From contig JAMLGZ010000001.1 of NCBI GenBank assembly GCA_023957385.1, positions 666,923 to 730,922 on the forward strand: a stretch of 64,000 bases of DNA, in the 5' to 3' direction. The position numbers and the translations under genes were made by a program. Positions 3,711-21,321 of this stretch are shown piece by piece (positions within the stretch are counted from its first letter, which is position 1; every line of letters starts with the position of its first letter). This DNA is from Brumimicrobium sp. (GTDB lineage: Bacteria; Bacteroidota; Bacteroidia; Flavobacteriales_D; Crocinitomicaceae). Below the pieces are notes generated by a model. It had not been told where the DNA came from, searched no databases, and was given only the letters and a program-made list of their open reading frames with translations.

Positions 3711-6700
3711 TCATTCTCTTTCAACCACCAACTTTCTGCTCACCTTCAACTCTCCGTTGTTATAAATGGCAATAATATACACCCCCTGTTTGAATCCTCT
3801 AGTGTCTATCACCTCTTCACCTTGATTGGATGAAAGTTTACCTTGTAGTTGCTCCCTACCACTTAAATCCACTACGCTATATCCAGCATCTTTTAAGTTG
3901 TCGTAGATATCCCACGATATACTTGTGTAGGAACTTGCTGGATTAGGATAAACTTTTACATTATACAAGATGTTGTTTAATTCTGCTGTGTTTGACGTAA
4001 ATGATGTAGGTTTTTGTTGTGACGTGTTTGGTAAGAGATTCTTCTCATAGCAGATGCCGTAGAAGAAACAGAGAATGTTTTGAGCATAACCTGCCACTCT
4101 TCCTTCCTCGCCTGCTAGAATTTGTAGATAATCAATTTCGGAAACGGTGAGTTGTGCTAGATTTCTGCTGCCAAGGCTTGCTCTAAAGGTGATGTAATTA
4201 TCCATCTGATTGATAAATGAAGTATTATCTTTCCATCTTTTATCTGTTTTTACAGTTTGTAAGACAGAGTCTGCCTTTTCGAATTCCAGATTTTCAATAA
4301 AGAAGTCCATAAGTGCTGTCTTTTGTGATAAATTGTTTCCCATTGAAGCTGTTTCCAAACGTTCCTGATAACTGTATGTTTCTGCTAAGTTTCGAATGTT
4401 TTTTACAAAATTTCTCGTACTTACCAATTGAGTATAAATGGAGGCTATTTGGCCTTCTAGTTGGGTGCGTAGAGTGAGTGCATCATAGTTATTCCTTACA
4501 TAATCTTTCATATAAGCAGGAAATGTATTATGTGTAGATTCATCAAGTTCTTGTAAGAATCGTTCGCCTTTTGTAGCATCTGGATTGGCAAGTAATATTT
4601 CCAGTAGCATGCCATTGGGAAGAACTCCGAGTGAAGCTGCATCCAATAACGCTTCCCTAGAAAGATAAGGCGATTATTCCAGTAAATTTCCTCGCAATGT
4701 CCAAGCATCCGAAGACCAATAATTTTCGATATACTCTTTTAATTCTTCTGTGTTACCATCGTCAATAAGCGTATGTAACGTATAATTCAAGTTATTGTAT
4801 GCTAAGGTGTAGTTCTCCAAGGCACTTGCTAAACTGTCTAAACCATTACCGGAAGATTTCATACCCACACTTCCTCCAAAACTGGTGAGGCAAGTGTGTG
4901 CAAACGTAGCTTCTTCCACTGTAATTGGCCCTGAATTATTAATAGGTTCTGCATTTGCTCCTTTATAAAAATACCGAATTGCACTTGTATAATTCTCAAT
5001 ATCCATCGTGTTATTGATAAAAGTGTTACCCGCTGAACTCGTAATGTACAAAGGATAGTAAAGACTAACGAAATCTCCCTGATTGTAACGTATGCCGTCA
5101 TCATTTTGTGTGGTAAATCCGATATATATTGCTTTTCCGTTCTCTTCAAAATTGTTACACAGAAATTGAAGTCCTTTACTATAACCTGTATTATGGTTTA
5201 CGCCTGTAGCTAAATTTCCATATTCATAGCCGTTTATGCTGTTTTTATATACACGGTTATCGTCCTCTCCACTGTTGCTAATAAAAATTCCAAAATCCAC
5301 AGGATTAGAAAAATTAGTGGTAAGTGTATTCTCTTCCACGATATACCCGGTAGAAGCATCGATAACAATTCCTGCACCTGTGTTTGAGCCAGTAAGCGTA
5401 TATCCTGCATCAGCTACTTCAATTTCATTACGGTTAATAGACACATTGTCCATTTCCTCTATCAATATATTCCACAAATTATCGGAAAACTCAGATTGCT
5501 CCACCCTAACCGTGTAAGATGTACTTGCTCCGGAAGCCTCCATTGCCATATTAAATCCCGAAAAACTGGATTTTAGTAAATCCTCACTTGGGCAAGGCTG
5601 CCCCACTGGCAAAAAAGGGTAATCACATCCTGCTTCTACTTTATATCCTGCGTTAATACTATAAATCCCTCTCATTGGAGCTGTGCTATTGTCTTTGTCT
5701 GTGGTGACATTATTTGCAAAATGGCAATTCATAAAACTAATACCATCAACATCCCACATAGTGACATGAGCATCTCTTTGTGGAAAGCCTTCTATATAAT
5801 CATTATCCGAAAAGAACTCTGTATTTCTAAAAAAGGAATGATTACCTACTTTTATATAAGATTTGGAGGGAGCAAAGTTTTGGTAAGTTGCAAAACCTAC
5901 ATCCACTCGGTTATTTCTAAAGATAGCATCTGTAGCTTGAATAACACCGCCAATTGCATCATAATCATTTGACTTCCAATTAGTAGCTCCCGCGTGCGCA
6001 TTTTCGATAGTCCCACCATTTCTAACAATTAATATGCCTTGATAGGTTGGCGATCCTTGTGGGTATTGGTTTTTGGTAGATGTACCCCAGACTTCAATGC
6101 CTTGCCAGTAGGAGTTATACTCATTCGTTAATGTTCCACCATCAATAATTAATTTTCCTCCTTGTTTAATAATTACTTTGCTGTCTGCTGAAAACCGAAC
6201 TGTTCCCGTTATCGTCAAAGTCGCTCCTTGTTCTATAATTAATGTGTCATTAATAAATTTATCTCCTGCCCATGAGGTATTGGCTGTTATTGGTGTAACC
6301 TTTCCATAAGTAGTTGCCATTAAAACAGCTTTGTATGCATTGATTCTTCCTGTTCCCACCATTCCTGGATAATTTGCTGCATCTGATATTGGGTCTGTTG
6401 TATTTTTAAGGATGTACTCAATATCTTGAGGCATCAAACATTGATTAATTGAATAAATTAAAGCTGCCGTTCCTGCAACAATGGGTGTGGCAAACGATGT
6501 TCCACCACTACTTCCATAATAAGGCCAAGGTCTATTACCACAATCTGTGAAAGTAGCCCCCATTATACCGTGCTCTGGCGAACAAATATCCACCATAGGA
6601 TAATGAGAATGAGTGATCTCTTGATTATCAGGATTAAATGTTTGATGTTTATCTTCATCATTCGTACTCGAAACTATAATGACTCTACTATCATAATATG

Positions 6701-7222
6701 GGGATAGTGGGAAAAAAGCTGTGTGATTATTTGGATCTATAGAAGCACAAAAATTGTGAGTTTCATTTTGCCCATTACCTGCGGGCATTATTATTGTTGT
6801 TCCATTATCCAATATTTCTTTAACAACAGCCTCTTCGATACCAGTTAAATCAGGACAAGAACTCCAACCACCTGCTGATGAAGTAATAATATTTGCTTTC
6901 ATAACCTTTGAAGCGTGATATGCACGTTGCAAATAATTACCTGCCAATGCTTTATATCCAATCATTTTAGTGTTAAACCCAATAGATGACAATTGACCAT
7001 TACTAGTTCCTCCTTGTTCTGTCGTTTCACCTGCAACCAAACTAGCTACTATTGTCCCATGTCTTGCATCATAGGATGTATCTTGTGTTAAAGGATTAAT
7101 TCTTATATACCCGTAAGAAGCAAAATAACAATCAAAAATTTCATTATCATAAGGATCATAGTTTAGAATAAATTCATTTGTTAAATCAGGATGAGTTAAA
7201 TCAAAATATGTATCAATGACTT
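3711..7222 (-). pseudogene. Subtilisin-like S8 serine protease with beta-helix region and T9SS type-A CTD, inactivated
   Basis: The frame is open from VIDTYFDLTHPDL (catalytic Asp at 7214-7212) through HGT (7061), PAGN and GTSFATP (Ser at 6497). An in-frame TAA at 4676-4674 (NLLE*SPYLSREALLDAASLG) joins track ORFs 4674..7040 and 3711..4646. The C-terminus is VKVYPNPASS...GVYIIAI...SRKLVVERE. There is no signal peptide or start codon, and the IS4 sits at the 5' break. Confidence 0.9.
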
Positions 7223-8657
7223 CACATTCATCCGAAAGTTTTTTAAAATTTGATACAAAACATCCTGTATCGTCCTATTTGTAATAGTCAATAATCATAA
7301 TGTGAGAAAAAAAGTCAAACAGTTAAAACATTTGGAGTTGTACCGTTGTCCACAAATCATCTTCTGGAGGAGGTTTCTCTGCTTTTTGGACAATCGGTCG
7401 GATAGTATTTATAACATAATCTAAGGAAAGATAGAATGGCAGACAAATTCTTATTTTTTCTACAAAGTTTGAAAAAGCCGTTTTCCCTGACACCCCAACT
7501 CTTCGTAAAAGTTCAAGTAGTAAATAGGTAATTAATGCAATAAATATTTGTGATTTTACTGCATTTTCAGAAGTTCCTATAAAAGTTTTGACATTGAGAT
7601 TTTGTTTTAAAAGCTTGAAGAAAGTTTCTATATCCCAACGCCTTCTGTATAGTTCTGCAATTGTTGAAGCTTTCCAAGAAAGATTATTAGTTATAATTTC
7701 TATCGTTGTATTTTTCTCTTCATGGTAGGCTACAACCTTTCTGAATTTCATTTGATTTATCCCAACTTCTTTTGCTTTTTGTCCTGTCAAATAAATAATC
7801 TCGTCTATTAAAATATGTTGATCCTCATTTTCTGGAAGATCTAATTCTTCAGCTACTTCATAAACAGTGTTTTCTTTTATTCTTGTAACAAAAACATTTT
7901 GGGACAACACCCTAGCTTTAATGATGTTAAAATCCCAATATCCTTTATCTTCAACAATAATCGTATCCTTTGGGAAAACAATTTCTTCAAATCCTTTTCT
8001 GTCATGAATAGATGCATTAGTGATATTCACAAGGTTAGGCATCATCATCGCCTCATCCCATTGCGTATGGATTTTAATTCCTCCTTTTGCTGTCCGAAAC
8101 TTTGCCCAATCAAAAAGCCCTAGACACACGCTAACTGTACTGCTATCACGAAGAAGAATAGTTTGATTTTTAACTTCTTCTACTACTTTTCGATGAGTAT
8201 GTCTTTTCAATAAATTACCGTAGTAGCTTAACAAACTCATATACAGACTCTCAAAGACTTTGTGGCTACGTTTTTTATTCCCATCACTCATCGTTGATTT
8301 TGCAGGACTTTGTTTTAAGTCTAAGTCCCGAATAAAGGTTTTCGACACACCAATACCAACAGAAATATCCTCTAAAGTACTACATCGAGACAGCTGTCCG
8401 AACAAATTTGCAACAAGTTGGTCATAAGTCTTGTATTTATGGCATCCCTTGTCAGAATTATGCTGTTGAATAACTCTTGCTAATAAATGTTGAGGAATTA
8501 AGTCAATAATTTGACGAATTACAGGCTTATTGTTATTTTTGTTCCTACGAAACAGTCCCATTTCATTTGAATTTTGTCGTGATTTTCAAATTTAAGAAGA
8601 CTGTTTCGGTTTTTTAATTTTTAATATGATTTTCTGAAAAAGTTTCGGATAGTTATG
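7223..8657 (-). mobile_element. IS4-family insertion sequence with target-site duplication
   Basis: Imperfect terminal IRs: CACATTCATCCGAAAGTTTTT (from 7223) versus the reverse complement of the right end, CATAACTATCCGAAACTTTTT (ending 8657). The flanking direct repeat CAATGACTT(CA) lies at 7214-7222(7224) and 8658-8666(8668). It is 9 bp if the IS starts at 7223 and 11 bp if it starts at 7225. Confidence 0.9.
7323..8561 (-). CDS. IS4-family DDE transposase
   Basis: 412 aa with DSST, DKGY and a YREK-like signature YRRRWDIETFFKLLKQ. The N-terminal region resembles DUF4372. Confidence 0.93.
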   Translation of the reverse strand: MGLFRRNKNNNKPVIRQIIDLIPQHLLARVIQQHNSDKGCHKYKTYDQLVANLFGQLSRCSTLEDISVGIGVSKTFIRDLDLKQSPAKSTMSDGNKKRSHKVFESLYMSLLSYYGNLLKRHTHRKVVEEVKNQTILLRDSSTVSVCLGLFDWAKFRTAKGGIKIHTQWDEAMMMPNLVNITNASIHDRKGFEEIVFPKDTIIVEDKGYWDFNIIKARVLSQNVFVTRIKENTVYEVAEELDLPENEDQHILIDEIIYLTGQKAKEVGINQMKFRKVVAYHEEKNTTIEIITNNLSWKASTIAELYRRRWDIETFFKLLKQNLNVKTFIGTSENAVKSQIFIALITYLLLELLRRVGVSGKTAFSNFVEKIRICLPFYLSLDYVINTIRPIVQKAEKPPPEDDLWTTVQLQMF

Positions 8658-8665
8658 CAATGACT

Positions 8666-9550
8666 TCATAATCTTATAACTTTTTTTACGATTAATAACT
8701 GGCTTTCAGTATTTGAAAGTGTTAAAAAATAGATTCCTCTACTGAGAAGAGTAACATCTACCTGAGCATGGGTTCTGAATTTACCTGAAATTAACATTTC
8801 TCCCTTTATGCTTGTTATATAGTAGTGAATCACATCGCTATTATATATATTTGAAATATTTAACATTTGTTCACTGGTTGGATTTGGGTAGATATTAATG
8901 TTATGATCTTCTAAAGATTCTAAGCCAACAGTGGTGCACAATCCTGTAAAATCCTGAAAATAGTTAAGACTATCTGATTTTACATGTTTGACAAGAGTTT
9001 TATTTTTTGTATTATAAGTATAATCAAATCCAAAATTTGTACCTATACCCTCAATAAATGTCAAGTGTTCATGAGTAAAATCATTTATTAAGTTTCCGAA
9101 TCGAATATGCTTTTTATTATTTTGGTAAAAGATGCTATCAACAACCACGTTAAAAGTATCAATAATTTGCTCATTTTGAATAGATCTTATAGGAATCGGG
9201 AAGGCGTCTCCTAAATTTAAGGATAAATCCATAATCAGCGTTTCTTCATTTACATTTCCATTATAAGGGGGAATAGAGGCAAAAAACCATAATCTTCCAT
9301 TAGTAGTATCTTCTCTAATAAAATTTGTATGATTATTGAAATCTGAAAAATTATTTAATACATGATATTGGTTGCCATTTATGTTCGTATCATTTATATA
9401 AACGATACTATCTATTTGGCAATTGATAAACTCAGGTGTTAACATTACTTTCAATTCAATCCAATGAGAAGATGGTTTTAGAACAGGTTCATACTGTGCA
9501 AAACTAACTCCTAAGAAGAGTAGAAATACTAAGAGGAGTGATTTTTTCAT
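8666..9550 (-). CDS. T9SS type-A sorting domain protein, function unknown
   Basis: Signal peptide MKKSLLLVFLLFLGVSFAQ and CTD INIYPNPTS...GIYFLTL...KKVIRL. Its TGA stop lies inside the right IS4 target duplication. Confidence 0.9.
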   Translation of the reverse strand: MKKSLLLVFLLFLGVSFAQYEPVLKPSSHWIELKVMLTPEFINCQIDSIVYINDTNINGNQYHVLNNFSDFNNHTNFIREDTTNGRLWFFASIPPYNGNVNEETLIMDLSLNLGDAFPIPIRSIQNEQIIDTFNVVVDSIFYQNNKKHIRFGNLINDFTHEHLTFIEGIGTNFGFDYTYNTKNKTLVKHVKSDSLNYFQDFTGLCTTVGLESLEDHNINIYPNPTSEQMLNISNIYNSDVIHYYITSIKGEMLISGKFRTHAQVDVTLLSRGIYFLTLSNTESQLLIVKKVIRL

Positions 9551-9798
9551 AATAGTTATTTTTAATGATTGCCTTACTAATTTACGATAATATATTCAAA
9601 TAAAAAAATATATTTTGGGGTTTAGGAGTAAGCTATCGTTATAAAGGTTGAATACCGATAGCTGTCGATGGGATAGTTTGGTATTTCTTTGTTATTTTCA
9701 AATACTCATTCCATAATTCATTGATATATAGTGATATTTTGTTAATAAAATAGTTAAAATACGGCATATTACGTATTTTTTGTAAAAATCACATTCAC

Positions 9799-9806
9799 TA
9801 CTTTTG
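9799..9806 (+). promoter_or_regulatory. Candidate -7 element (TACTTTTG) for the beta-helix/DPG-repeat operon
   Basis: Matches TAnnTTTG about 35 bp upstream of the ATG at 9841. A second match (TATTTTTG) lies near 9735-9742. Confidence 0.45.
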
Positions 9807-9840
9807 TTCAATTATATAACCTATTAAAATTGATAAATTT

Positions 9841-11142
9841 ATGAAAACAAAAAAACTAATCGTAGGAATTTTTTCTACTATCATGATGGCGTTTAATGTG
9901 AACGCTGCAGACTTATGTGTAAGTGAATCTGGTTCAGGAGGATGTTACTCTTCAATCTCGGATGCCATAGCTGCTGCTGCAGATGGAGATAGAATATTAA
10001 TTCAACCTAAAACTGGAGGGGCTTCCTATACAGAAAATTTCATCATTAATAAATCTGTTCAATTATTGTCTAATACAGAAGGAGTTATGTGGGTAATGAC
10101 AGGGAATATTACTGTTACGCCTGCAATAGGAAGAAAAATTTCTATCTTACACATGAAAAACAATACTGGGTATATTGCCGCAACTGGAGCTAGTCCTGCA
10201 GGAGCGCGTTGTGAAGTCAATATTATGAATTGTGAGTTATTGGGTGGATATATTAATTTCAACTACGATTATTTTAATGCAAATATTATTTCTAATATAA
10301 TTAATAAGGGATATATAGCCATCCGATTTGGAAATGTGATCGGGAATGAAATTAAAAACACAACTGCTGGTCAAGGATTAAGTAATGGTAGTGGTTATTA
10401 TCTAAGTTGTATTACTGTTAATACTGATGGACTGGTATCGAATGATACACTTAACATTGTGGGGAATATGATGACAATTGATGCAGGAAATTACCCAAAT
10501 TTTATCTATTGGAATAATTCTTCCCAATTTTTTAATATTATGAATAATTATGGATACAATTCATCATCTCCATCAAATTATGATACTTACTATTTGACTA
10601 TTGCTGCCGCTAAAAACTCTGCTTTAACAACTAATAAGATTATTAATAATACGATTTACACTAGGATGTATTATGCAAATAGAGCACGTGGTATTTATTT
10701 TCCATTTAATAATTCAAGTTACCCAAATAGTAAATTTGATGTGCTAAATAATTTGTTACTAGGAGATGTGTCAAGTACAGTAATGATTTCGGATAATACC
10801 GGAACTAATACAATCTCCTGCTCCTATAATTATTTGAACAATGGAAGTGTAATTTATGGTATAACAGATGATGGCACTAATAATGCCAACTCAAATACAA
10901 CAATCAATACAACTACTGGTAAAATGAATATTGGTTCTGATGGTTTTAATGCAGGATATCCAGATTTTACTTATTATGATATAGATTTAACTCAGAATGA
11001 TGTGGGTTGTTATGGAGGTTCATTTACGTTAGATAACTTTTTCCCAATTACAGGTGCAGCTCGTGTATTCTTTGTAAATGCTCCAAGAACTATTCTGCAA
11101 AGTGGAACCTTAAACATCAAAGCAAATTCGTTTGACAGATAG
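9841..11142 (+). CDS. Secreted right-handed parallel beta-helix (pectin-lyase-like fold) protein with no T9SS CTD
   Basis: Sec signal ending VNA/ADL. The N-cap YSSISDAIAAAADGDRILI is typical of beta-helix proteins, followed by Asn/Ile-rich coils (NIISN, IVGN, IINN, VLNN) and a C-cap D-x-G-x-Y-G-G (NDVGCYGG). It ends in a short beta-rich tail with no YPNP. Confidence 0.8.
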   Translation: MKTKKLIVGIFSTIMMAFNVNAADLCVSESGSGGCYSSISDAIAAAADGDRILIQPKTGGASYTENFIINKSVQLLSNTEGVMWVMTGNITVTPAIGRKISILHMKNNTGYIAATGASPAGARCEVNIMNCELLGGYINFNYDYFNANIISNIINKGYIAIRFGNVIGNEIKNTTAGQGLSNGSGYYLSCITVNTDGLVSNDTLNIVGNMMTIDAGNYPNFIYWNNSSQFFNIMNNYGYNSSSPSNYDTYYLTIAAAKNSALTTNKIINNTIYTRMYYANRARGIYFPFNNSSYPNSKFDVLNNLLLGDVSSTVMISDNTGTNTISCSYNYLNNGSVIYGITDDGTNNANSNTTINTTTGKMNIGSDGFNAGYPDFTYYDIDLTQNDVGCYGGSFTLDNFFPITGAARVFFVNAPRTILQSGTLNIKANSFDR

Positions 11143-11186
11143 TATTCAAAAGAAAATTGAGAATTAATAAACTAAATCTTTTGAAT

Positions 11187-14100
11187 ATGAAACGATTGTT
11201 TAATCCATACTTTCTGCTGATGGTGCTATTTGTTATGGCTACCAGCTACGGATTTTCTCAGCGAAAACTCGTGGAAGCAGAGTATTTTATCGATGCTGAC
11301 CCAGGTGAAGGGAGTGGTATTTCGGTAATAGCAAGTGATGGAAATATAGACAATGCAGTTGAATCATTATTTAAAAATGGGATTTCTGTTGGAGCGGTCG
11401 GCTTACACACGTTTAACATTCGTGTAAAAGATGACCAAGGCGATTGGGGGCCTATTTTTAAGACTGTATTTTATGCAGCGTCTACACTTACTAAACGTAA
11501 TATCAAAGTCTCTCAGGCAGAATTGTTCTGGGATGCCGATCCAGGAGAAGGAAATGGTACAACTGTACTGGCTTTCGATGGGAATTTTAGTGATGCCGTC
11601 GAAGTACTTGCAGCTACTATTTATACACTTCCTTCAGTTGGAGTTCACACCATGAATATCCGTGTAAAGGATGTGCAAGGAACTTGGGGACCAATATTTA
11701 CTTCAGTCATAAATATTACCAATTCCATGGTAATACGAACTCCTAAAATAACTGTTGCTGAAATGTTCTTTGATAGTGACCCAGGAGAGGGGAATGGTAC
11801 TACAGTATTGGCTTATGATGGAAATTTCAACAATGCTATCGAAGCCTTAACTTCTACTATATTCACACTTCCAACAGTTGGTGTACACTCTATGGGTATC
11901 CGTGTGAAAGATGCGCAAGGAATCTGGGGTCCTGTTTTTACCACAGTGTTAAATATTACGAGTCCGCTTGTGAAACGTAATCCAAAAGTAACATTAGCTG
12001 AGTTATATTGGGATACTGATCCAGGAGAGGGTAGTGGTACTCCATTATTAGCTTTTGATGGTAATTTCAATGACGCTATTGAGGCCTTGACTGTATCTAA
12101 CCTGACTATTCCAGGAACAGGTATTCATACATTGAATGTTCGTGTGAGTGACGGTAGTAATTGGGGTCCTGTTTTTACCACATTGATGAATATTACATCT
12201 CCTTTGGTATTGAGAGACATAAAAATTACTGCCGGCGAATATTTTTGGGATACAGACCCAGGACAAGGTAATGGTTCACCGTTGTTAGCTTTTGATGGGA
12301 ATTTCAATGATGCAATTGAATCATTGTCAGAATCAGGAGGAAGCTTACCTGCTTATGGTGTTCATTTATTTAATGTTCGTGTCAAGGATGCTCAAAATAA
12401 TTGGGGCCCTGTTTTTAAAACGATTATTGATATAACTACGCCATTGGCTTTACGTGGAATTAAAGTGAAGAAAGCAGAGTTCTTCTTTGATAATGATCCA
12501 GGACAAGGTAACGGAAATCCTTTATTGGCATTTGATGGTAATTTTGATAATGTCATTGAAGACCTTCATCAGTCATGGGCATATATCCCTGATACAGGCT
12601 TACATGTTTTAAATGTGCGTGTAGAAGACTTTAATGGGAATTGGGGACCTACCTTTAAAACAGTAGTTAAAGTAGAGCCATGTTTAGCACATCCAACTAT
12701 TGCGATTACACCTAGTTCCACTCAGTTAATTTGTCCGGGTGATGAGGTGAATTTCTCAGCAGATGCTGGATTTTCGTCTTATACTTGGTTTAAGGGTGGA
12801 ACAATAGTAGGAACAGGTCAGACATTTGATGCTGATACTTCTGGTTTCTATCGTGTTTACGCTGTGGATAATGACGGTTGTGGTGTATTCTCAGACTTTA
12901 CTGAGGTAAAGATTAGCTATTATGATGCTTCAATTACGGCAAATGGTCCAACTACTTTCTGTCAAGGAGGTAATGTTGTGTTAACTGCTGCAAGTGGTGC
13001 TACTTCCTATTTATGGAACACAGGTGCTACTACTCAAGGTATTAATGTAGCTTCCTCAGGAACGTATGTAGTAACTGTTTCAAATGGAAATTGCTTAGGT
13101 ACAGATACGGTTAATGTAGTAGTAAATCCTAATCCAAGTACTCCTGTGATTACGGCTAATGGAGCTACTTCATTTTGTGCTGGAGGTGACGTAGATTTGA
13201 CTTGTATTACACCAGCAGCTGCTTATTCTTGGAGTACCAATGAATATACACAGACTATTACTGCTAGTAGTCAAGGTACATATACAGTTACCATATTTGA
13301 TGCAAATAATTGTAAGAGCACTTCTAGTATCAATGTTTCTATATTCCCTAACCCAATTTCAAGTGTTAGTGGTAACGTGAATATTTGTCAGGGAGATGAT
13401 GCGCAATTATTTGTAAATGGTGGTTCTTCTTATGTATGGTCGCCTGCAGTTGGTTTAAGTGATCCAACTATTTCAAATCCAATTGCTAATCCTTCTTCTT
13501 CTACACAATACAAAGTTGTGGTAACTGGAATAGGAGGATGTGTAGATTCGGCTACTGTAAATGTATTTGTGAATCCAGCTCCAATAGTGACAGCCTCTGT
13601 AAGTGCAACTACTTTATGTACAACAGAGTCTCTTCAACTATCTGCCTCTCCTAACGGAGCGACATCTTATGTGTGGACTGGCCCAGGAGGATATTACAGT
13701 ACGAGTCAGAATCCAATGATTCCTTCAGTAAATAGTTCACATAATGGAACGTTTTCGGTTACAGCTTACTATCCTTCTGGTTGTTATACAACTGGTTCAG
13801 TAAGTGTAACGGTAAATCCAGGACCAACAGCGTATGTTTCGGCTAACAAAACCGACTTCTGTGTGGGTGAGGATTTGAATCTTTCAGTGCTACCTAATGG
13901 AATGACTTATTCTTGGGTAGGACCAAATGGATTTATGAGTACAGATCAAAATCCAAGTATCACTGGTCTAGATGGTTCAAATGATGGAGCGTATGTCGTA
14001 ACAGTTGATAATGGATTGTGTAGTTCTACTGCAACTATTCAAATCAATGTGGCAGGTTCAATATCAGTTAATGCGAGTTCCAATCTAACTACTTTATGTA

Positions 14101-16433
14101 CAGGAAATACTTTACACTTAACTGCTTCTGCAAGTGGTGCAACAGTATTTAGTTGGACAGGTCCGAATGGATTTACAAGCTCTCAACAGAACCCTAGTTT
14201 TGTTACGAGTTCTGCGAGTCAAAGCGGTATTTATACTGTAGTAGCTTCCAATACTGCCGGATGTTCTGTATCTAGTAGTGTAAATGTAACGGTGAATCCT
14301 TCACCAACTGCATTTGCTTCTATTGGTAGTCCAACAATCTGCTCAGGAGAAGATATTGAATTATTTGCTTTGCCAAATGGTTTGAGTTATGCTTGGACAG
14401 GTCCGAATGGATTTACGAGTACAGATCAAAATCCAGTTATCCTAAATGCTACAGGAGCTAATCAAGGTTCTTATACATTGGTAGTGGATAATGGTTCTTG
14501 TAATGCTATTAGTTCAGTTTCCGTAATTGTAAACACATCACCAACCATTACTGCAGGTGTTAATTCATCAAATGTATGTGAGGGAAGTGTGTTAAGCTTT
14601 ACAGCAACTCCTAGTGGGGGTACATCTTACTTATGGACAGGTCCAAATGGATTTAATAGTTCTAATCAAAATCCGATTATTAATGCAACAAATGCAAATC
14701 ATAGCGGAAAATATGTGGTAACTGTTGAAAATTCATTTGGTTGTAAGGCAAAAGACTCTGTTACTGTAACAGTACATAATGCTATAGCTCCATCTATCTC
14801 AGCTAATTTCACAGATATCTGTGAAGGACAAACTTTAAGTTTAGTTGGATTGCCAAGTGGTATGTCATCTTATAGTTGGGTAGGTCCAAATGGTTATACA
14901 AGCAGTAGTCCTGCACCAAATATTACAGGAATTTTACCAACACAACAAGGTAAATATTTTGTAACCATGACTAATGGTATTTGTACTGCAACAGATTCTA
15001 TCCAGATTACAGTAAAAGCAACACCAACTATTTTTGCGACGGCAAATGATAATACGCTTTGTGAAGGAAGTGTATTGATTTTATCCGCTACAACGAATAG
15101 TGGAACTAGCTTTAGTTGGACAGGACCAAATAGTTTTGCTAGTTTGGATCAATATCCAAGTTTTGCTTCTGTTTCTATGGCAAATGCAGGTACTTATTCT
15201 GTTACAACGACACACCCAAATGGGTGTCAGGCAACAGATGATATTACCATTATCATTAGTCCAGTACCAAATGTTTCAATTTGGGCAAATAGCTTGACAC
15301 TTTGTGAAGATGAGACATTGAAATTGTATTCTGGACCAGATAGCATGTATTCGTATGATTGGACAGGACCAGATGGATACAATATATCTACTCAAAATCC
15401 ACAGTTGTCTAGCCTACAGTTTGCGCATCAAGGTATGTATGTAGTAACAGTTAGTGATAGTATTTGTAGTGCTTCAGATTCTCTTTATGTGACAATTAAG
15501 TCACTACCAGAGATTCATGCAACAGCGAATAACACTTTGTTATGTGAAGGAAGTGTATTGAATTTAAGTGCCAGTCCATCTGGAGCAGTTAGCTATGAAT
15601 GGAATGGACCAAATGCATTTAACGCAAATACACAAAACACTACATTAACAGCAGTGATACCAACAAATAGTGGTGATTATATTGTTACAGCATATAATTC
15701 AGATGGTTGTTATAACAGTGACACCATTGCTATTTCTGTGGTAAATGGAATTCAAGCAATTATCTCAACTGACGCTTCCGTTTGTGAAAAAACAGACATT
15801 GAATTGTTTGGTTTACCGAATGGTATGGTGAGTTACCAATGGTCAGGTCCGGATGGATTTACTAGTTCAGACCAAGACCCGATAATAGCTGCTGTAGGAA
15901 TGGCTGCAAATGGTATATACTCTTTGACAGTGTCTTCAGACGTATGTAGTTCTACAACAAACTATACCGTTACAGTGAAGCCAGCACCAAATACATCTGT
16001 CACTCAGATTGGTTCAGTATTAAATGCAGATTTAAATAATGCTAATTATCAATGGGTAAGCTGTGATAATGCATTTGAATCAATTGTTGGCGCAACAAGT
16101 CAAACATATACAGCAACTGAGAATGCAGATTTTGCGGTTATAATAGTATATGACGGTTGTGTAGATACTTCTGATTGTTATTCTATTACAGGATTAGGAT
16201 TAGAAGAGCTATCATTGGATGGTTGGGGTATTTATCCAAATCCAAACAATGGTACATTCTACATTACAGCCAATAAAGAAGCTGTTTTTGAATTACATGA
16301 TATGAATGGCAAACTCGTAGCTGTTTACGATGCAAAAACATATCCACAAGAGGTGAAACTAGAGGTGGAACCTGGAATGTATTTTGTGCGTGAAAAAGAA
16401 AGCGGGGAAACCAAGAAAGTAATCATTAAATAG
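11187..16433 (+). CDS. Large T9SS type-A cargo: six 80-aa DPGxGxG repeats, about 14-15 Ig-like stalk repeats and a CTD
   Basis: The ATG at 11187 gives a signal peptide (the track starts at TTG 11157). DPG motifs occur at 11298, 11538, 11778, 12018, 12255 and 12495. The stalk repeats carry C-x-G...Y-x-W-x-G-P. The CTD is WGIYPNPNNG...PGMYFV...KKVIIK. Confidence 0.92.
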   Translation: MKRLFNPYFLLMVLFVMATSYGFSQRKLVEAEYFIDADPGEGSGISVIASDGNIDNAVESLFKNGISVGAVGLHTFNIRVKDDQGDWGPIFKTVFYAASTLTKRNIKVSQAELFWDADPGEGNGTTVLAFDGNFSDAVEVLAATIYTLPSVGVHTMNIRVKDVQGTWGPIFTSVINITNSMVIRTPKITVAEMFFDSDPGEGNGTTVLAYDGNFNNAIEALTSTIFTLPTVGVHSMGIRVKDAQGIWGPVFTTVLNITSPLVKRNPKVTLAELYWDTDPGEGSGTPLLAFDGNFNDAIEALTVSNLTIPGTGIHTLNVRVSDGSNWGPVFTTLMNITSPLVLRDIKITAGEYFWDTDPGQGNGSPLLAFDGNFNDAIESLSESGGSLPAYGVHLFNVRVKDAQNNWGPVFKTIIDITTPLALRGIKVKKAEFFFDNDPGQGNGNPLLAFDGNFDNVIEDLHQSWAYIPDTGLHVLNVRVEDFNGNWGPTFKTVVKVEPCLAHPTIAITPSSTQLICPGDEVNFSADAGFSSYTWFKGGTIVGTGQTFDADTSGFYRVYAVDNDGCGVFSDFTEVKISYYDASITANGPTTFCQGGNVVLTAASGATSYLWNTGATTQGINVASSGTYVVTVSNGNCLGTDTVNVVVNPNPSTPVITANGATSFCAGGDVDLTCITPAAAYSWSTNEYTQTITASSQGTYTVTIFDANNCKSTSSINVSIFPNPISSVSGNVNICQGDDAQLFVNGGSSYVWSPAVGLSDPTISNPIANPSSSTQYKVVVTGIGGCVDSATVNVFVNPAPIVTASVSATTLCTTESLQLSASPNGATSYVWTGPGGYYSTSQNPMIPSVNSSHNGTFSVTAYYPSGCYTTGSVSVTVNPGPTAYVSANKTDFCVGEDLNLSVLPNGMTYSWVGPNGFMSTDQNPSITGLDGSNDGAYVVTVDNGLCSSTATIQINVAGSISVNASSNLTTLCTGNTLHLTASASGATVFSWTGPNGFTSSQQNPSFVTSSASQSGIYTVVASNTAGCSVSSSVNVTVNPSPTAFASIGSPTICSGEDIELFALPNGLSYAWTGPNGFTSTDQNPVILNATGANQGSYTLVVDNGSCNAISSVSVIVNTSPTITAGVNSSNVCEGSVLSFTATPSGGTSYLWTGPNGFNSSNQNPIINATNANHSGKYVVTVENSFGCKAKDSVTVTVHNAIAPSISANFTDICEGQTLSLVGLPSGMSSYSWVGPNGYTSSSPAPNITGILPTQQGKYFVTMTNGICTATDSIQITVKATPTIFATANDNTLCEGSVLILSATTNSGTSFSWTGPNSFASLDQYPSFASVSMANAGTYSVTTTHPNGCQATDDITIIISPVPNVSIWANSLTLCEDETLKLYSGPDSMYSYDWTGPDGYNISTQNPQLSSLQFAHQGMYVVTVSDSICSASDSLYVTIKSLPEIHATANNTLLCEGSVLNLSASPSGAVSYEWNGPNAFNANTQNTTLTAVIPTNSGDYIVTAYNSDGCYNSDTIAISVVNGIQAIISTDASVCEKTDIELFGLPNGMVSYQWSGPDGFTSSDQDPIIAAVGMAANGIYSLTVSSDVCSSTTNYTVTVKPAPNTSVTQIGSVLNADLNNANYQWVSCDNAFESIVGATSQTYTATENADFAVIIVYDGCVDTSDCYSITGLGLEELSLDGWGIYPNPNNGTFYITANKEAVFELHDMNGKLVAVYDAKTYPQEVKLEVEPGMYFVREKESGETKKVIIK
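11265..12680 (+). repeat. Six tandem coding repeats of about 240 bp
   Basis: DPG codon spacing is 240, 240, 240, 237, 240 bp. Consensus: AE(Y/L/M/F)x(W/F/I)DxDPG(E/Q)G(N/S)G..(L/I)(L/A)A(F/Y)DGN(F)xxA(I/V)E...G(L/V/I)Hxx(N/G)(I/V)RVxD...WGP(V/I/T)F(K/T)(T/S). Confidence 0.95.
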
Positions 16434-16452
16434 TCTTAAGTTTATCAATTAG

Positions 16453-16482
16453 AAAGCCGTCTCTAAAAGAGGCGGCTTTTTT
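16453..16482 (+). terminator. Rho-independent terminator after the T9SS cargo operon
   Basis: Stem AAAGCCGTCTCT / AGAGGCGGCTTT with an AAA loop, followed by a T-tract. Confidence 0.85.
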
Positions 16483-16516
16483 AATGGTAAATCTTTTCTA
16501 TCTTCTATTTCCTCCT

Positions 16517-16524
16517 TACCTTTG
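16517..16524 (+). promoter_or_regulatory. -7 element (TACCTTTG) directly before the DUF3109 start
   Basis: Consensus match ending 4 nt before the ATG at 16529. Confidence 0.6.
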
Positions 16525-16528
16525 CATC

Positions 16529-17113
16529 ATGTTAATACAAATTGGAGATAAAATAGTAACAGATGAGCTTTTCACACGAAAGTTCATGTGTGATTTGAAT
16601 AAATGTAAAGGTGCTTGCTGTGTAGAAGGAGAGGATGGAGCACCGGTAACAACAGATGAAATCAAAATCATAGAAGAGCTATTACCGAAAATAAAACCCT
16701 ATATGATTCCAGAAGGGATTGAGAAGGTAGAGAAAGATGGAGTGGCTCATGCTGATAAAGATGGTGATATGGTTACTAATCTCGTGAGTAATGGGGCATG
16801 TGCTTTTGTTTTTTATGATGAGAGAGGAATAGCTAAATGTGCTATTGAGAAAGCATATCGCAATGGAGATATTAATTGGAAAAAACCTATTTCATGTGAA
16901 CTTTTCCCTATTCGAGCCAAGAAGTTCCCTGAATTTACTGCCTTGAATTATGAAGAAATTGACATATGTAAACCTGGCTGTATTTTGGGCGAAAAGATGA
17001 ATATCCCTTTATACCAATTCTTAAAAGATGCTATCATACGTGCTTATGGAGAAGAATTCTATCAGGAGTTAGATAAAGTATTCCTAGAAATTCAAAAAGA
17101 AGAGAACGAATAA
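16529..17113 (+). CDS. DUF3109 family Cys-rich protein
   Basis: F-x-C-D-L-x-x-C-K-G-A-C-C-V-E-G, CAIEKAY and KPISCELFPIR motifs. Start moved from 16484 (which overlaps the terminator and promoter) to ATG 16529. Confidence 0.85.
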   Translation: MLIQIGDKIVTDELFTRKFMCDLNKCKGACCVEGEDGAPVTTDEIKIIEELLPKIKPYMIPEGIEKVEKDGVAHADKDGDMVTNLVSNGACAFVFYDERGIAKCAIEKAYRNGDINWKKPISCELFPIRAKKFPEFTALNYEEIDICKPGCILGEKMNIPLYQFLKDAIIRAYGEEFYQELDKVFLEIQKEENE

Positions 17114-17956
17114 ATGATTCCAAAAATTTATAGTAACAACTGGGCCGATTATGAACTGATCGATGCTGGATTTAATAAAAAACTAGAGCGTTGGGGCAAA
17201 GTAATTACCATTCGCCCTGAATTACAGGCATATTTCCCCCCAGCTTTATCTGCTAAAGAGTGGAAAGAGAAGGCTCATCTTGAATTTATTGAGAAAAGTT
17301 CAACTAATGGAGAATGGAAATTGCTCAAATCTCTACCGACAGGTGATTGGAAAATTCACTTTCAAGGATTAAGTTTTTTACTTGAACGAACAAAATTTAA
17401 ACACGTTGGTCTTTTTCCGGAGCAAGCAACAAATTGGGAACTTATATCCGATTTCTTACAGCCTGGAATGAAGATGCTTAATCTTTTTGCATATACAGGA
17501 GCTGCTTCTGTTGTAGGTAGGAATACAGGAGCTGAAGTTACGCATGTAGATTCAGTTAAGCAGCTAATTACTTGGGCTAAGTATAATATGGAGGATTCAG
17601 GATTATCTGATATTCGTTGGATACATGAGGATGCTCTTAAATTTGCTCAGAAAGAAGAGAAGAGGGGAAATACCTATGATTTAATTGTTATGGATCCACC
17701 TGCTTGGGGAGTTGGAACAAAAAATGAAAAATGGAAACTCGAAGACCAATTGGAATTTTTGATTGAATCGGCAGCTATTCTTCTTAAACAAGATGGTTTG
17801 CTAATTTTAAATACCTACTCACCCAAAATTACATTAGAAGAAATTCAAGAATATGCTGAACCTTATTTTCGCAAAATTGAATTGGCAGAATTGTGGAAAA
17901 AAACTACTACGGGAAAAGAATTATTTTATGGCTTTTTGTTAAGGGCATATAAATAA
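17114..17956 (+). CDS. Class I SAM-dependent methyltransferase (RlmI/RlmK-like)
   Basis: LNLFAYTG motif I, HVDS, DPPAWG and the KHVGLFPEQ segment. Confidence 0.88.
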   Translation: MIPKIYSNNWADYELIDAGFNKKLERWGKVITIRPELQAYFPPALSAKEWKEKAHLEFIEKSSTNGEWKLLKSLPTGDWKIHFQGLSFLLERTKFKHVGLFPEQATNWELISDFLQPGMKMLNLFAYTGAASVVGRNTGAEVTHVDSVKQLITWAKYNMEDSGLSDIRWIHEDALKFAQKEEKRGNTYDLIVMDPPAWGVGTKNEKWKLEDQLEFLIESAAILLKQDGLLILNTYSPKITLEEIQEYAEPYFRKIELAELWKKTTTGKELFYGFLLRAYK

Positions 17957-17992
17957 AATTATATATTTACTCCACACTTTAAATTTAAAATT

Positions 17993-18451
17993 ATGATTTT
18001 TGATACTGCTACTGCATTCCTGATTGAACAAAGTATCACTGAATTAGGGGTTGATGCAGCTTTGTGTCGGGGAGATAAAGATGGTCAGTGGACACTAACG
18101 TACAAAGGCTCTACAGTCTATATTGATTTATTTTCTTTTCCAGAAAAGCCTAATCAATTTTATTTCCAAGTAATGAGTCCATTGATGAAAGTTCCCGATA
18201 GAAATAAAGAAGCAATTTATTTGAACCTTTTAACTATTAACTTTGAATTGTATGGTTGTTCTATTTGTGTAAAAGGAGAATGGATGTATATGATGAGTTT
18301 GCGTGAGGCTGATAATTTAGATAAGAGTGAGATTGATGCAACTATTGATCGTATAGCATTTTACTCAGCTGATTATTATAGTAAATTATTGTTCAAATAC
18401 GAGGGATCTTGGGATTCTAAGCCAACGGATTCAATGCCAAATAATAATTGA
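17993..18451 (+). CDS. YbjN-domain (CesT-like fold) protein
   Basis: 152 aa with the pattern W-x-L-x-x-x-G...LLTINF...R...LD..E...IDRIAFYSADYY. Confidence 0.65.
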   Translation: MIFDTATAFLIEQSITELGVDAALCRGDKDGQWTLTYKGSTVYIDLFSFPEKPNQFYFQVMSPLMKVPDRNKEAIYLNLLTINFELYGCSICVKGEWMYMMSLREADNLDKSEIDATIDRIAFYSADYYSKLLFKYEGSWDSKPTDSMPNNN

Positions 18452-18455
18452 TTTC

Positions 18456-19796
18456 CTAAAAATCTAAATACCAAGAAGCGATACTAAAATATATCAGTAC
18501 TCCGCTAATATCAGCAATGGTTGTAATAAGAGGCGCACTTGCTGTTGCGGGGTCTATCTTTAGTTTAGTAAAGATGAATGGTAATAAGAGTCCTACGACA
18601 CTACCCATTAAGACAATTGCCAACATGGTTAAGGCAACAACTACAATTACTTCTGGTGCACGAAAACTAGCTACAAGAGAAACACCTAAAGCCATTGTTA
18701 GACCTAATATTAAAGACACTGCAAATTCTTTAGTAATTAGGCGATACCAATCACTCATTTTGACATCTCCCATTGCAAGTGAACGTATCATTAAAGTAGC
18801 TGTTTGCGATCCTGCATTTCCACCACTATCAATGAGAAGAGGTAAGAAAAATACAAGTGCTACATATTTACCTATAACGTCTTCAAAACTAGCAAGGATT
18901 CCACCAGAAAATAGATTCATGAAAACTAAAGCTATCAGCCAGAAAATACGATTTTTGTATAAATCAAAAATACGTGCAGTTAATGGATTGGAAACGGCAC
19001 TTTGAAAGGCTCCAAATTTATGGAAGTCCTCAGAAGATTCTTCTTCCTGAACGTCCATAATATCGTCAAAAGTTACAATACCTAACAAAACACCTTTGTC
19101 ATCCACTACTGGAAGAGCCACTCTATTACAATCTTTAAAAATTCGGATGGCAGTTTCTTGGTCTTCAGAAGCCTTTAACGAAATAAACTGATGGTTTACT
19201 AAATCGTCTATTATTTGCTCTGGCTCTGCTAGAATTAAATCTTTTATAGTAATATCATCAACTAATTTCCAGTCCTTATCAACAATATAGATTACGTTAA
19301 GTGTTTCGGAATTATGTCCGAATTTTCGTATATGTTGAAAGGTTTTTTCTACGGTGAAAGTAGGTCGTATAGCTACAAATTCTGTAGTCATCAAACGCCC
19401 AATACTGTCTTTGGGATAGCCTAATAATTGATTGGTGATATTGCGTTGTTCTTCTGATAATTGTTTGATAAGACGTTGTGCTACTTCACCTGGTAATTCT
19501 GCTAAAAATGCAGTACGGTCATCTGGGTCAATATCGTTTAATAGTTGAGCAATTTTATTGGCGTTTTCGGCTAAATCTTCGATAATTTCTTGTTGTCCTT
19601 CAAGTGAAAGAAGTTTAAACACTTCGCGAGTTTGATCATTGTTTAACAATCGGAAGAGAATGATTTTATCTCTTCTTGAAATTTCTTCAAAAAGTTCAAA
19701 TACAGAATATGGCTCAAGGTTTTCAACTTCTTGCTTGAGTTTTTTCCATTCTTGATTTTCAATCATGGATAGTATCTTTTCTATCTCTTCTACCAT
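18456..19796 (-). CDS. mgtE: Magnesium transporter MgtE
   Basis: N-domain, CBS pair (GRLMT, LPVVD), DSGGNAGSQ and ITTIAD motifs. The likely start is MVEEIEK at 19796 (track start 19850). Confidence 0.95.
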   Translation of the reverse strand: MVEEIEKILSMIENQEWKKLKQEVENLEPYSVFELFEEISRRDKIILFRLLNNDQTREVFKLLSLEGQQEIIEDLAENANKIAQLLNDIDPDDRTAFLAELPGEVAQRLIKQLSEEQRNITNQLLGYPKDSIGRLMTTEFVAIRPTFTVEKTFQHIRKFGHNSETLNVIYIVDKDWKLVDDITIKDLILAEPEQIIDDLVNHQFISLKASEDQETAIRIFKDCNRVALPVVDDKGVLLGIVTFDDIMDVQEEESSEDFHKFGAFQSAVSNPLTARIFDLYKNRIFWLIALVFMNLFSGGILASFEDVIGKYVALVFFLPLLIDSGGNAGSQTATLMIRSLAMGDVKMSDWYRLITKEFAVSLILGLTMALGVSLVASFRAPEVIVVVALTMLAIVLMGSVVGLLLPFIFTKLKIDPATASAPLITTIADISGVLIYFSIASWYLDF

Positions 19797-19878
19797 AATT
19801 GGTTCTTTAGTCGGCACAAAAATAAGCCGTTCAAATGAAAAGAGGATCATTTTTGATAAAAATATTTATCCTTACCCA

Positions 19879-20832
19879 CTAATCAAAATATTTATAATCT
19901 CTTAATTTGATTACTCGAATGAAATTTGTGTTCAGATCTTGGATTAAAATATCATTGATGAAATTGCTATCATCTTTATATATTATCTGATATTGTGTTG
20001 TATATTCATTATTTCGATGTATTTCTTTTTTCAATAATTTCCCTGTGTCATCGTAAGAAAAGACATATAACAAATTATTGTTGTCGTTAAGCTTTGAAGA
20101 AATAATGAGTGTATCTAATTTCTTTTTTTCATTGTAATGATAGCTTGTCCTAGTAGTTTGAGAAGTACGTAGTAGGCGTTCCAACTTCCCTTCTAATTGA
20201 TTGTCAGATGTGTAATATGATATGGTTTCTTTGTATGGTAGATTACTTTGGTTATATGTAATTTGTTTTATTTGATTATCATATTTTTCATAACTGTAGG
20301 TCTCCATAGCAATGATATCATCATCATCTAAAGAAATTTTGTCGGGTGAAAGATAGCATCTGTCATAGCTTCGTTTATAAATATAGCGAACAACTTGGTG
20401 GTCTTTGTTGTATTCGTATATGTGGAAATAGTAGCCATATTTATCTCGTACTTTGATACTTTTTAAATCACCATTCTCAGTGTATTCAAATTTCTGAATG
20501 AGTGTATCATTTTTGGTATTTTGTAAACTCTCATAGTCTGCAATTAATTGTCCTTTTTGGTTAAACTCAAAGTATTTAAAATATTCTGTATTCCGAAGTT
20601 TATCTCCTAATTTATAATTCCAAAATAAGCCTGATATGCTTTTAATTTTCATTTTTTGGATGAAGTTTTCATTGAAATATGGTTTGTCTGTGAATACTTG
20701 TCCATAGGAATTATCAATCATCTGACTATATACTTGCGTGTTTAGCAGTATGAGTAGGAAAATGCTATGGAAAAATGTTGCTGATTTCACGAATTTAGAA
20801 AGAAAAACCTCTGTAATTACAGAGGTTTCCAT
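19879..20832 (-). CDS. Hypothetical exported protein with YD-like (Y-x-Y-D/N-x-x-G) repeats; start uncertain
   Basis: Recurrent FEFNQKGQL, FEYTENGDL, YEYNKDHQV, YHYNEKKKL and FSYDDTGKL segments, after a signal-like stretch ending VYSQ. Confidence 0.65.
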   Translation of the reverse strand: METSVITEVFLSKFVKSATFFHSIFLLILLNTQVYSQMIDNSYGQVFTDKPYFNENFIQKMKIKSISGLFWNYKLGDKLRNTEYFKYFEFNQKGQLIADYESLQNTKNDTLIQKFEYTENGDLKSIKVRDKYGYYFHIYEYNKDHQVVRYIYKRSYDRCYLSPDKISLDDDDIIAMETYSYEKYDNQIKQITYNQSNLPYKETISYYTSDNQLEGKLERLLRTSQTTRTSYHYNEKKKLDTLIISSKLNDNNNLLYVFSYDDTGKLLKKEIHRNNEYTTQYQIIYKDDSNFINDILIQDLNTNFIRVIKLRDYKYFD

Positions 20833-20853
20833 TTATTTGTTTGTTGTTGTTTG

Positions 20854-21303
20854 CTATTTATTAAGTTCTTGTTTAACTATGTCAGAGATGAGTTTCCCGT
20901 CTGCTTTTCCTGCCAATTCTTTCGTAATTTTTCCCATTACTTTTCCCATATCTTGTGGGCCTGATGCTCCTACTTCTGATATGGTTTTTTTGACAATCAC
21001 CCTGATTTCATCCTCGCTCATCATTTGTGGCAAGAAGACTTCAATAATCTTGGCTTCAAAAAGTTCTGTGCTTGCTAAATCATCACGACCTTGTTGTTTA
21101 TATAACTCATAAGATTCCATTCTTTGTTTATATAATCGAGCTACAATCTTATTTTCAGCAGCTTCATCAACTTCTCCGTGACCAGCAGTAGCCTCTAGTA
21201 ATATTTTAGCTTTGATGTCGCGCAATGCCGTTAGCTTTTCTTTTTCTTTTGCTAACATAGCTTCTTTTATCTCTTGATTTATTTTGTCTGTTAAACTTGC
21301 CAT
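20854..21303 (-). CDS. yqeY: GatB/YqeY domain protein
   Basis: Y-x-x-x-G-R-x-D-L-A and GPQDMGKVMG...GKADGK motifs. Follows ftsZ. Confidence 0.92.
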   Translation of the reverse strand: MASLTDKINQEIKEAMLAKEKEKLTALRDIKAKILLEATAGHGEVDEAAENKIVARLYKQRMESYELYKQQGRDDLASTELFEAKIIEVFLPQMMSEDEIRVIVKKTISEVGASGPQDMGKVMGKITKELAGKADGKLISDIVKQELNK

Positions 21304-21321
21304 TTTATTCCCTTATTTTAT

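Follow-up and report, generated by a model that had tools for sequence, protein, structure and literature searches.

The stretch of DNA considered here (the window) comprises 64,000 nucleotides (nt) of Brumimicrobium sp. (Crocinitomicaceae; assembly GCA_023957385.1, contig JAMLGZ010000001.1, positions 666,923 to 730,922 of the forward strand) and is numbered from its first letter. It carries a two-gene module, composed of a gene for a predicted Sec-exported beta-helix protein, referred to as the partner, and, directly downstream on the same strand, a gene for a type IX secretion system (T9SS) cargo protein. The mature N-terminus of the cargo is formed by six repeats of about 80 amino acids (aa), which had been singled out in an initial annotation, made from the sequence alone, as a domain without a named family. 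The subject of this analysis is the repeat and its relation to the partner. The features of the module are listed below; the repeats were placed by motif spacing, alignment and profile match.

9799..9806, + strand: TACTTTTG, match to the Bacteroidota -7 promoter element TAnnTTTG and possible operon promoter (inspection)
9841..11142, + strand: partner gene, 433 aa, with a Sec signal, a predicted Asn-ladder right-handed beta-helix and no T9SS sorting domain (open reading frame, ORF; alignment)
11187..16433, + strand: T9SS cargo gene, 1748 aa from the ATG at 11187 (ORF open from the TTG at 11157)
11187..11261, + strand: signal peptide of the cargo, MKRLFNPYFLLMVLFVMATSYGFSQ (sequence inspection)
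11265..11504, + strand: repeat 1, N-terminal cap type
11505..11744, + strand: repeat 2, internal, modelled together with repeat 3
11745..11984, + strand: repeat 3, internal, modelled together with repeat 2
11985..12221, + strand: repeat 4, internal, 79 aa, one codon shorter
12222..12461, + strand: repeat 5, internal
12462..12701, + strand: repeat 6, junction type, leading into the stalk
12690..15989, + strand: stalk of 14 immunoglobulin-like (Ig-like) domains of the Ig_2, Ig_7 (CHU_C-associated) and PKD_6 types (Pfam matches, self-profile search)
16230..16433, + strand: T9SS type A C-terminal sorting domain and stop codon (PF18962, TIGR04183)

The six in-frame repeats span nucleotides 11265-12701 of a single + strand ORF and begin directly after the signal peptide. 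Their D-x-D-P-G motifs lie at nucleotides 11292, 11532, 11772, 12012, 12249 and 12489, which matches exactly the spacings of 240, 240, 240, 237 and 240 bp given in the initial annotation; its end of the array, 12680, was the only coordinate to be corrected, as the sixth unit runs to 12701. The alignment of the six units contains 23 invariant columns, including D10, D12-P13-G14, G16, G18, D25-G26-N27, G46, H48, R53-V54, D56 and W61-G62-P63, and thus all the residues that had been described as invariant (D-x-D-P-G, D-G-N, G-x-H, R-V-x-D and W-G-P). Each unit matches the six-copy profile with an E value of 1e-39 to 1e-43, which excludes chance. Pairwise protein identity among the copies is 42-66%, and at the DNA level it is only 53-71%, for which reason Tandem Repeats Finder did not report the array; the repeat is visible at the protein level only. 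Two DNA strings had been quoted as an example of heavy divergence at third codon positions, and these, located at 11541 and 11781, indeed differ at 9 of 48 bases, seven of which are third codon positions, with a single amino acid change between them. Over all 15 repeat pairs (Nei-Gojobori method), the proportion of synonymous differences (pS) is 0.57-0.85, which is saturated, and that of non-synonymous differences (pN) 0.18-0.38, and the ratio of non-synonymous to synonymous substitution rates (dN/dS) is 0.10-0.32 for the pairs where it is computable. The purifying selection proposed for the repeats is borne out by these values, and the six copies are old duplicates maintained by it. A profile search of the 3.3-Mb genome found no second repeat-bearing protein.

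Repeat 1 is 50-69% identical to repeat 1 of its orthologues and 32-52% identical to their other repeats (8 of 8 orthologues). Repeat 6 most resembles the last repeat in six of these eight, at 61-65% identity, and is less close to their other repeats. The internal repeats are interchangeable among the eight orthologues, which have 3 to 7 copies each. This pattern fits a model in which the internal units are equivalent sites and the terminal units are adapted to their position.

On sequence criteria, the repeat is a new, undescribed and Bacteroidota-specific module family of ~80 aa with a dedicated partner encoded in trans. As stated in the initial annotation, no named family can be assigned to it: searches of Pfam, NCBIfam and the PDB sequences were negative throughout, and no strong match to a characterised domain was found in them. 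Nothing in Pfam scores above threshold, the best match being the sub-threshold Y_Y_Y domain discussed below; NCBIfam gave no match, and neither one protein nor three profiles, among them the six-copy and an 89-row profile, found anything meaningful in the PDB sequences, where the best match was a haemoglobin at E 0.4. The precomputed list of a newer Pfam for the window's own protein contains stalk and sorting-domain families only, and a literature search found no published work on the repeat family or on the beta-helix partner family.

Searched with a repeat profile, 1.84 billion representative proteins yielded 5391 clusters at E <= 1e-3, 786 of them reaching E <= 1e-30. The best 151 proteins have 3 to ~51 copies each with a period of mostly 76-84 residues, and in 127 of them the first repeat begins at residues 20-39 (about residue 25), right behind the signal peptide. 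Arrays of 2-50 copies are usually located at the mature N-terminus and are followed by variable regions (PKD, Ig_7, SprB repeats and others), which nearly always end in Por_Secre_tail. The genome records with the repeat are those of Bacteroidota, namely Flavobacterium, Chryseobacterium, Fluviicola, Crocinitomicaceae, Cytophagales, Chitinophagales and Bacteroidales, and in an even sample of this phylum the repeat is present in 33 of 301 genomes and 22 of 144 genera. Flavobacterium dankookense DSM 25687 and F. suncheonense DSM 17707 are two of the non-pathogenic carriers that can be cultured. Labels from outside the Bacteroidota were met with in L074 (a metagenome-assembled genome, MAG, of Alphaproteobacteria; 1550-bp contig), P0088 (a Deltaproteobacteria MAG, partial) and P0184 (Ca. 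Calescibacterium, partial). Since all of these are short contigs or partial metagenome-bin records, mis-binning is more likely than a real occurrence outside the Bacteroidota.

The signature of the whole superfamily reads aEYF-D-x-DPG-x-G-x-G ... G-x-H-x-l-x-x-R-x-k-d-x-x-G-x-W-[SG]. Only the subfamily found in the window has the DGN motif, E33 and the helix region; DGN and E33 are not conserved across the superfamily. The polar residues E6, D10, D12, H48, R53 and W61 are kept throughout; to our knowledge, this set is not a feature of FN3 or BIg domains, and the invariant polar residues appear more numerous than we would expect of a plain spacer domain.

The evidence that connects the repeat to the partner comes from a comparison of 79 loci, which were fetched solely for having the repeat. 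In 76 of these, a partner homologue is encoded directly upstream on the same strand (median gap ~20 bp), and in the remaining three the contig end cuts inside the array, so that an upstream partner is present in 76 of 76 assessable loci. All seven strong partner matches in the 301-genome sample adjoin repeats. An ORF for a beta-helix protein of 335-390 aa with a Sec signal is likewise found directly upstream in 18 of 18 divergent repeat loci, and these upstream ORFs form one BLAST-linked family with the partner of the window. What lies between repeats and sorting domain in the cargo differs from locus to locus (PKD, Ig_7, SprB) or is missing, and the smallest cargo, L135, consists of a signal peptide, two repeats and the sorting domain only, with the partner still encoded upstream. 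Hence, the repeats are the only element besides the sorting domain that is common to all cargo. The gene order of these loci shows that the repeat family is genetically coupled to one partner family, made up of predicted Sec-exported beta-helix proteins of 335-450 aa without a sorting domain.

In one lineage, belonging to the same family and a different genus, partner and cargo are fused in a single ORF of 1517 aa (L116:1686-6239). From the N-terminus it encodes a signal peptide, the beta-helix (2-433), a linker of 13 aa, a single repeat (447-514), the Ig stalk and the sorting domain; no internal signal peptide was found in it, including the linker. Among the 323 proteins retrieved first, in searches limited by protein length, none combines the two families, and the fusion emerged from the genome search. 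Five more protein clusters have the same fusion layout and are 65-100% identical over the head; as the fusion has been kept over 35% divergence, it is not an assembly error. To judge from its layout, the fused lineage shows a predicted beta-helix that is exported and displayed within a T9SS cargo, directly N-terminal to the repeat.

Some further arrangements were observed. Contig C8 of G111 carries three modules of partner and repeat cargo within ~40 kb (225-266 kb; L123, L124 and L125), two of which have an extra ORF of ~354 aa in front, and one extra ORF is a second partner paralogue; L033 and L068 each have two tandem partner genes. The partner had at one stage seemed absent from 26 repeat-positive genomes. 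This was rejected, as the homologues, which were seen on inspecting the loci, are too divergent for the profile at E 1e-5. The families PF27503.1 and PF25942.1 appear in the precomputed Pfam lists of P0005, P0010, P0046, P0257 and P0297-P0299 and of the fusions P0324-P0326; they are not listed for the window's protein. They might be newer families that touch repeat or fusion proteins.

In the window, the partner stop codon is separated from the cargo gene by 44 nt, and no terminator-like site was found between the two genes. TAnnTTTG is the Bacteroidetes -7 promoter consensus, and the match to it sits 34 nt upstream of the partner ATG; being a short motif in AT-rich DNA, it is weak evidence. 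The alignment of the partner family displays a GD-R-I N-cap (GD-x-I), a periodic x-I-x-N-N Asn ladder, which is typical of right-handed beta-helices, a D-x-G-x-Y-G-G C-cap and, at the C-terminus, a conserved tail of ~35 aa forming two strands. The partner has no match in Pfam, NCBIfam or the PDB sequences, and its 89 homologues are all annotated as 'hypothetical' with the exception of one UniRef entry named 'parallel beta helix pectate lyase-like'. A sorting domain is absent, with no Pfam or NCBIfam match and an hhalign value of 0.5% as against 95% for the positive control. Family-wide, conserved residues occur only in the caps, along the Asn ladder and in the C-terminal tail. Because no conserved catalytic-looking cluster was found in the family, the head is more likely to provide a binding or adhesive surface than to be an enzyme.

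The cargo in its 1748-aa form is 100% identical to database record P0007. The 14 stalk units were placed by the self-profile search at residues 512-1611, numbered from the TTG start, and one more domain of ~80 aa is located between the Ig-like stalk and the sorting domain. The latter scores 33.1 bits against PF18962 (cut-off 27) and 37.5 bits against TIGR04183 (cut-off 23), which, together with the N-terminal Sec signal recognised by inspection, identifies the protein as a T9SS type A cargo. Type A cargo is attached to the cell surface by its sorting-domain end, and the repeat array should therefore constitute the cell-distal tip.

The fold of the repeat was modelled with AlphaFold2 (AF2) for repeats 2 and 3, using an 89-row di-repeat alignment made from the locus translations (pLDDT 79, pTM 0.47); a single-sequence AF2 run on three repeats gave an unusable model (pLDDT 48). 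In the model, each unit begins with a strand at 2-9, which leads into the DxDPGxGxG loop; residues 19-22 form a short strand and 28-38 a helix of low confidence, and two long strands, 46-56 and 61-71, make up the closing hairpin. Foldseek searches of PDB and BFVD with the two-repeat query returned class-level matches only, to tandem FN3, cohesin-FN3 and BIg proteins; for tandem FN3 the probability is 0.9-1.0, but TM-scores are <= 0.33 and E values >= 3e-4. The top E values were 2e-3 for PDB 2w1n and 3e-4 for BFVD FN3 proteins, and PDB 3pdd and SiiE (2yn3) were also among the matches. Tandem FN3, BIg and Big_13 modules, as present in adhesins and phage tail fibres, are thus the best Foldseek classes for the repeat, and weak Big_13 matches occur on divergent repeats. 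In contrast to these modules, the model has four confident strands and the low-confidence helix per 80 aa. The beta-sandwich of the initial annotation accordingly stands in part: the model and the Foldseek matches make a beta-rich module plausible that is Ig/FN3-like in class only, whereas a full seven-strand sandwich is not what was modelled.

A possible kinship with Y_Y_Y (PF07495), the Ig-like domain that follows beta-propellers in hybrid sensor kinases of Bacteroidota, has to be considered. On the array of the window, this family scores 20.9 bits (E 3.3e-4), below its gathering threshold of 26.6 and with no single stretch significant. Comparison of the repeat with Y_Y_Y domains from related genomes by hhalign yielded a probability of 88.7% (P 2.6e-6), but the alignment covers only 28 of 65 profile columns, repeat positions 44-71, that is, the final hairpin; as controls, the repeat profile gave 0.2% with the cargo's own Ig stalk and 0.8% with the sorting domain. 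This last hairpin, G-x-[HY]-x-l-x-V-R-x-x-D-x-x-G-x-W-S, is common to both, and some repeat homologues reach the whole-protein Y_Y_Y score of Pfam by summing many weak repeat matches. However, neither the N-terminal half of the repeat (EYF-D-x-DPG-x-G-x-G) nor its variable middle has a counterpart in Y_Y_Y, and while the repeat occurs in tandem arrays behind the signal peptide of T9SS cargo, Y_Y_Y is a single domain placed after Reg_prop beta-propellers in sensors. The genuine Y_Y_Y domains in related loci were found inside Reg_prop histidine kinases. By these comparisons the repeat is not a member of Y_Y_Y and is perhaps a distant relative.

What might the repeats do at the tip of the cargo? 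The genomic context suggests a protein partner, the product of the upstream gene, and of the ideas in the initial annotation, that of a peptide ligand comes closest to this. We lean towards the view that the repeats are docking sites for the beta-helix head at the tip of a secreted stalk. The array, presented at the cell-distal tip of a T9SS cargo that is anchored by its C-terminal sorting domain and extended on 14 Ig-like domains, would form with the partner a two-part head-and-stalk surface structure, perhaps with one head per repeat. Because the fused head is exported in cis by the T9SS, the head of the split form is proposed to bind the repeats in the periplasm and to be carried out with them. 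A fuller version, in which the array is a multivalent socket and the beta-helix head, once docked in the periplasm, passes the T9SS translocon as a piggy-back passenger, is conceivable, although we hold it to be doubtful. Contact may be made through the two-strand C-terminal tail of the partner and the invariant EYF-DxDPG / H-R-W surface of the repeat. Several points count against docking. Functional coupling is what synteny and fusion demonstrate; they do not identify the repeats as the contact surface, and the last hairpin of the module resembles an ordinary Ig-like spacer. Moreover, there are 2 to ~50 repeats for one or two partner genes, which makes one head per repeat a guess, and the literature yielded no precedent for T9SS cargo taking along for export a protein that has no sorting domain.

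The first alternative to docking is that the repeats are adhesin or spacer modules binding Ca2+ or another ligand, with the beta-helix protein working alongside and not attached to them. A tandem array at the distal tip is typical of adhesins, an acidic, Gly-rich loop (D10, D12, G14, G16, G18) is conserved together with E6 and H48, and the weak Foldseek matches include SiiE, a Ca2+-binding adhesin, and Bap, which is associated with biofilms. Ca2+ binding by the repeats, as raised in the initial annotation, is conceivable but unsupported. The TM-scores of these matches are again <= 0.33, and all six copies, like the superfamily consensus, have D-x-D-P-G-x-G in the loop, not D-x-D-x-D-G, the calcium motif that supplies a third acidic ligand; the repeat might bind Ca2+ in another mode. 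DGN and E33, moreover, are absent from the wider superfamily, and the invariable adjacency of the partner and the fusion are left unexplained, so that we consider this alternative unlikely.

The strict pairing of one gene with one gene, and a partner that has a Sec signal, no sorting domain and no conserved catalytic residues, would also suit a periplasmic protein devoted to the array as its chaperone or secretion helper, comparable to SprF for SprB, which would not itself become a surface partner. SprF-type helpers, however, are outer-membrane beta-barrels paired with type B sorting domains, and the cargo in the window is of type A. An Asn-ladder beta-helix of 400 aa is unlike familiar chaperones, and the exported protein of the fused lineage itself contains the beta-helix, N-terminal of its repeat, an arrangement retained despite 35% divergence; a helper role thus seems distinctly improbable. 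We give still less credit to a third alternative, in which the repeats are carbohydrate-binding modules (CBMs) for a glycan that the beta-helix, as a polysaccharide lyase or hydrolase, would attack. Resemblance to pectate lyases is frequent among beta-helix proteins, as in the one UniRef name, and the top Foldseek PDB matches, 2w1n and 3pdd, are FN3-like or cohesin-FN3 modules of glycoside hydrolases. Yet neither protein matches a CBM, lyase or glycoside hydrolase family, no cluster of acidic or basic catalytic residues is conserved in the partner, and the loci lie outside polysaccharide-utilisation clusters, their conserved neighbours being TPR sensor kinases and LytTR or LuxR regulators. A glycan-directed pair is therefore very improbable.

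If the docking model is right, the repeats and the partner would resemble the cohesin-dockerin scaffoldins, in which surface-anchored tandem beta-sandwich modules hold a separately encoded protein that has no anchor of its own. Neither cohesin (PF00963) nor dockerin (PF00404) gave a Pfam match in the repeats or the partner (E <= 1; second scan at E <= 0.01). Whereas many enzymes are held in cellulosomes, there is one dedicated partner family here, and, unlike in scaffoldins, anchoring is by a T9SS sorting domain at a Gram-negative outer membrane, which the partner would have to cross. The layout can also be compared with that of classical single-chain T9SS type A cargo, such as the gingipain-type and ChiA-type proteins, with which the cargo shares the Sec signal, the Ig-like stalk and the Por_Secre_tail/TIGR04183 end. 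The fused lineage L116 has exactly this classical layout. In the split form, by contrast, the sole candidate for a functional head is encoded by a separate gene and has no sorting domain, and, in contrast to classical cargo, the cargo in the window has no recognisable functional domain besides the repeats.

The pair occurs in ~11% of the sampled Bacteroidota genomes, and the repeat in thousands of protein clusters, yet both families are without an assignment in Pfam, NCBIfam or the PDB. Defining both would considerably reduce the number of proteins annotated as 'hypothetical' or 'T9SS type A sorting domain-containing'. Should the repeats prove to be docking sites, display by the T9SS, and perhaps export, would be open to proteins without a sorting signal, which would change the prediction of T9SS secretomes from sequence, and Bacteroidota would possess a natural modular scaffold for surface display with 2 to 50 sockets. 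Piggy-back export, if true, would be a new route and, with it, a cohesin-dockerin-like display undescribed for the T9SS would exist in about one in nine Bacteroidota genomes.

The partner is present in none of three same-genus genomes and in 5 of 61 genomes of the same family. A gene for an insertion sequence (IS)-type transposase (DDE_Tnp_1/DUF4372; window 7323-8561, - strand) lies 1.3 kb upstream of the module, and the patchy distribution together with this transposase suggests that the two genes belong to an accessory, possibly mobile region. Other ORFs close by on the upstream side encode secreted proteins (3711-4646, 4674-7040 and 8666-9550, all - strand), which comprise two small proteins of 311 and 294 aa that have T9SS sorting domains and no other Pfam domain, and an S8 subtilase of 788 aa; the module is thus located within a small cluster of genes for secreted proteins.

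Sensor histidine kinases of the TPR or Reg_prop/Y_Y_Y type, or a TPR-AraC regulator, are encoded beside the module in 31 of the 79 loci (for instance L036:8503-11535, - strand; L013:81-2852, + strand; L018:2403-4109, + strand), and LytTR or LuxR response regulators are found nearby in 17 of the 79. No such regulators are present among the scanned ORFs flanking the module of the window (3711-23052). The sensor kinases and regulators adjoining the module in related loci suggest that its expression is regulated. On the downstream side, a run of - strand genes extends to ~36738 and is headed by FtsZ (Tubulin and FtsZ_C domains; 21322-23052, - strand), and this run looks like the cell-division/cell-wall (dcw) cluster, a housekeeping context.

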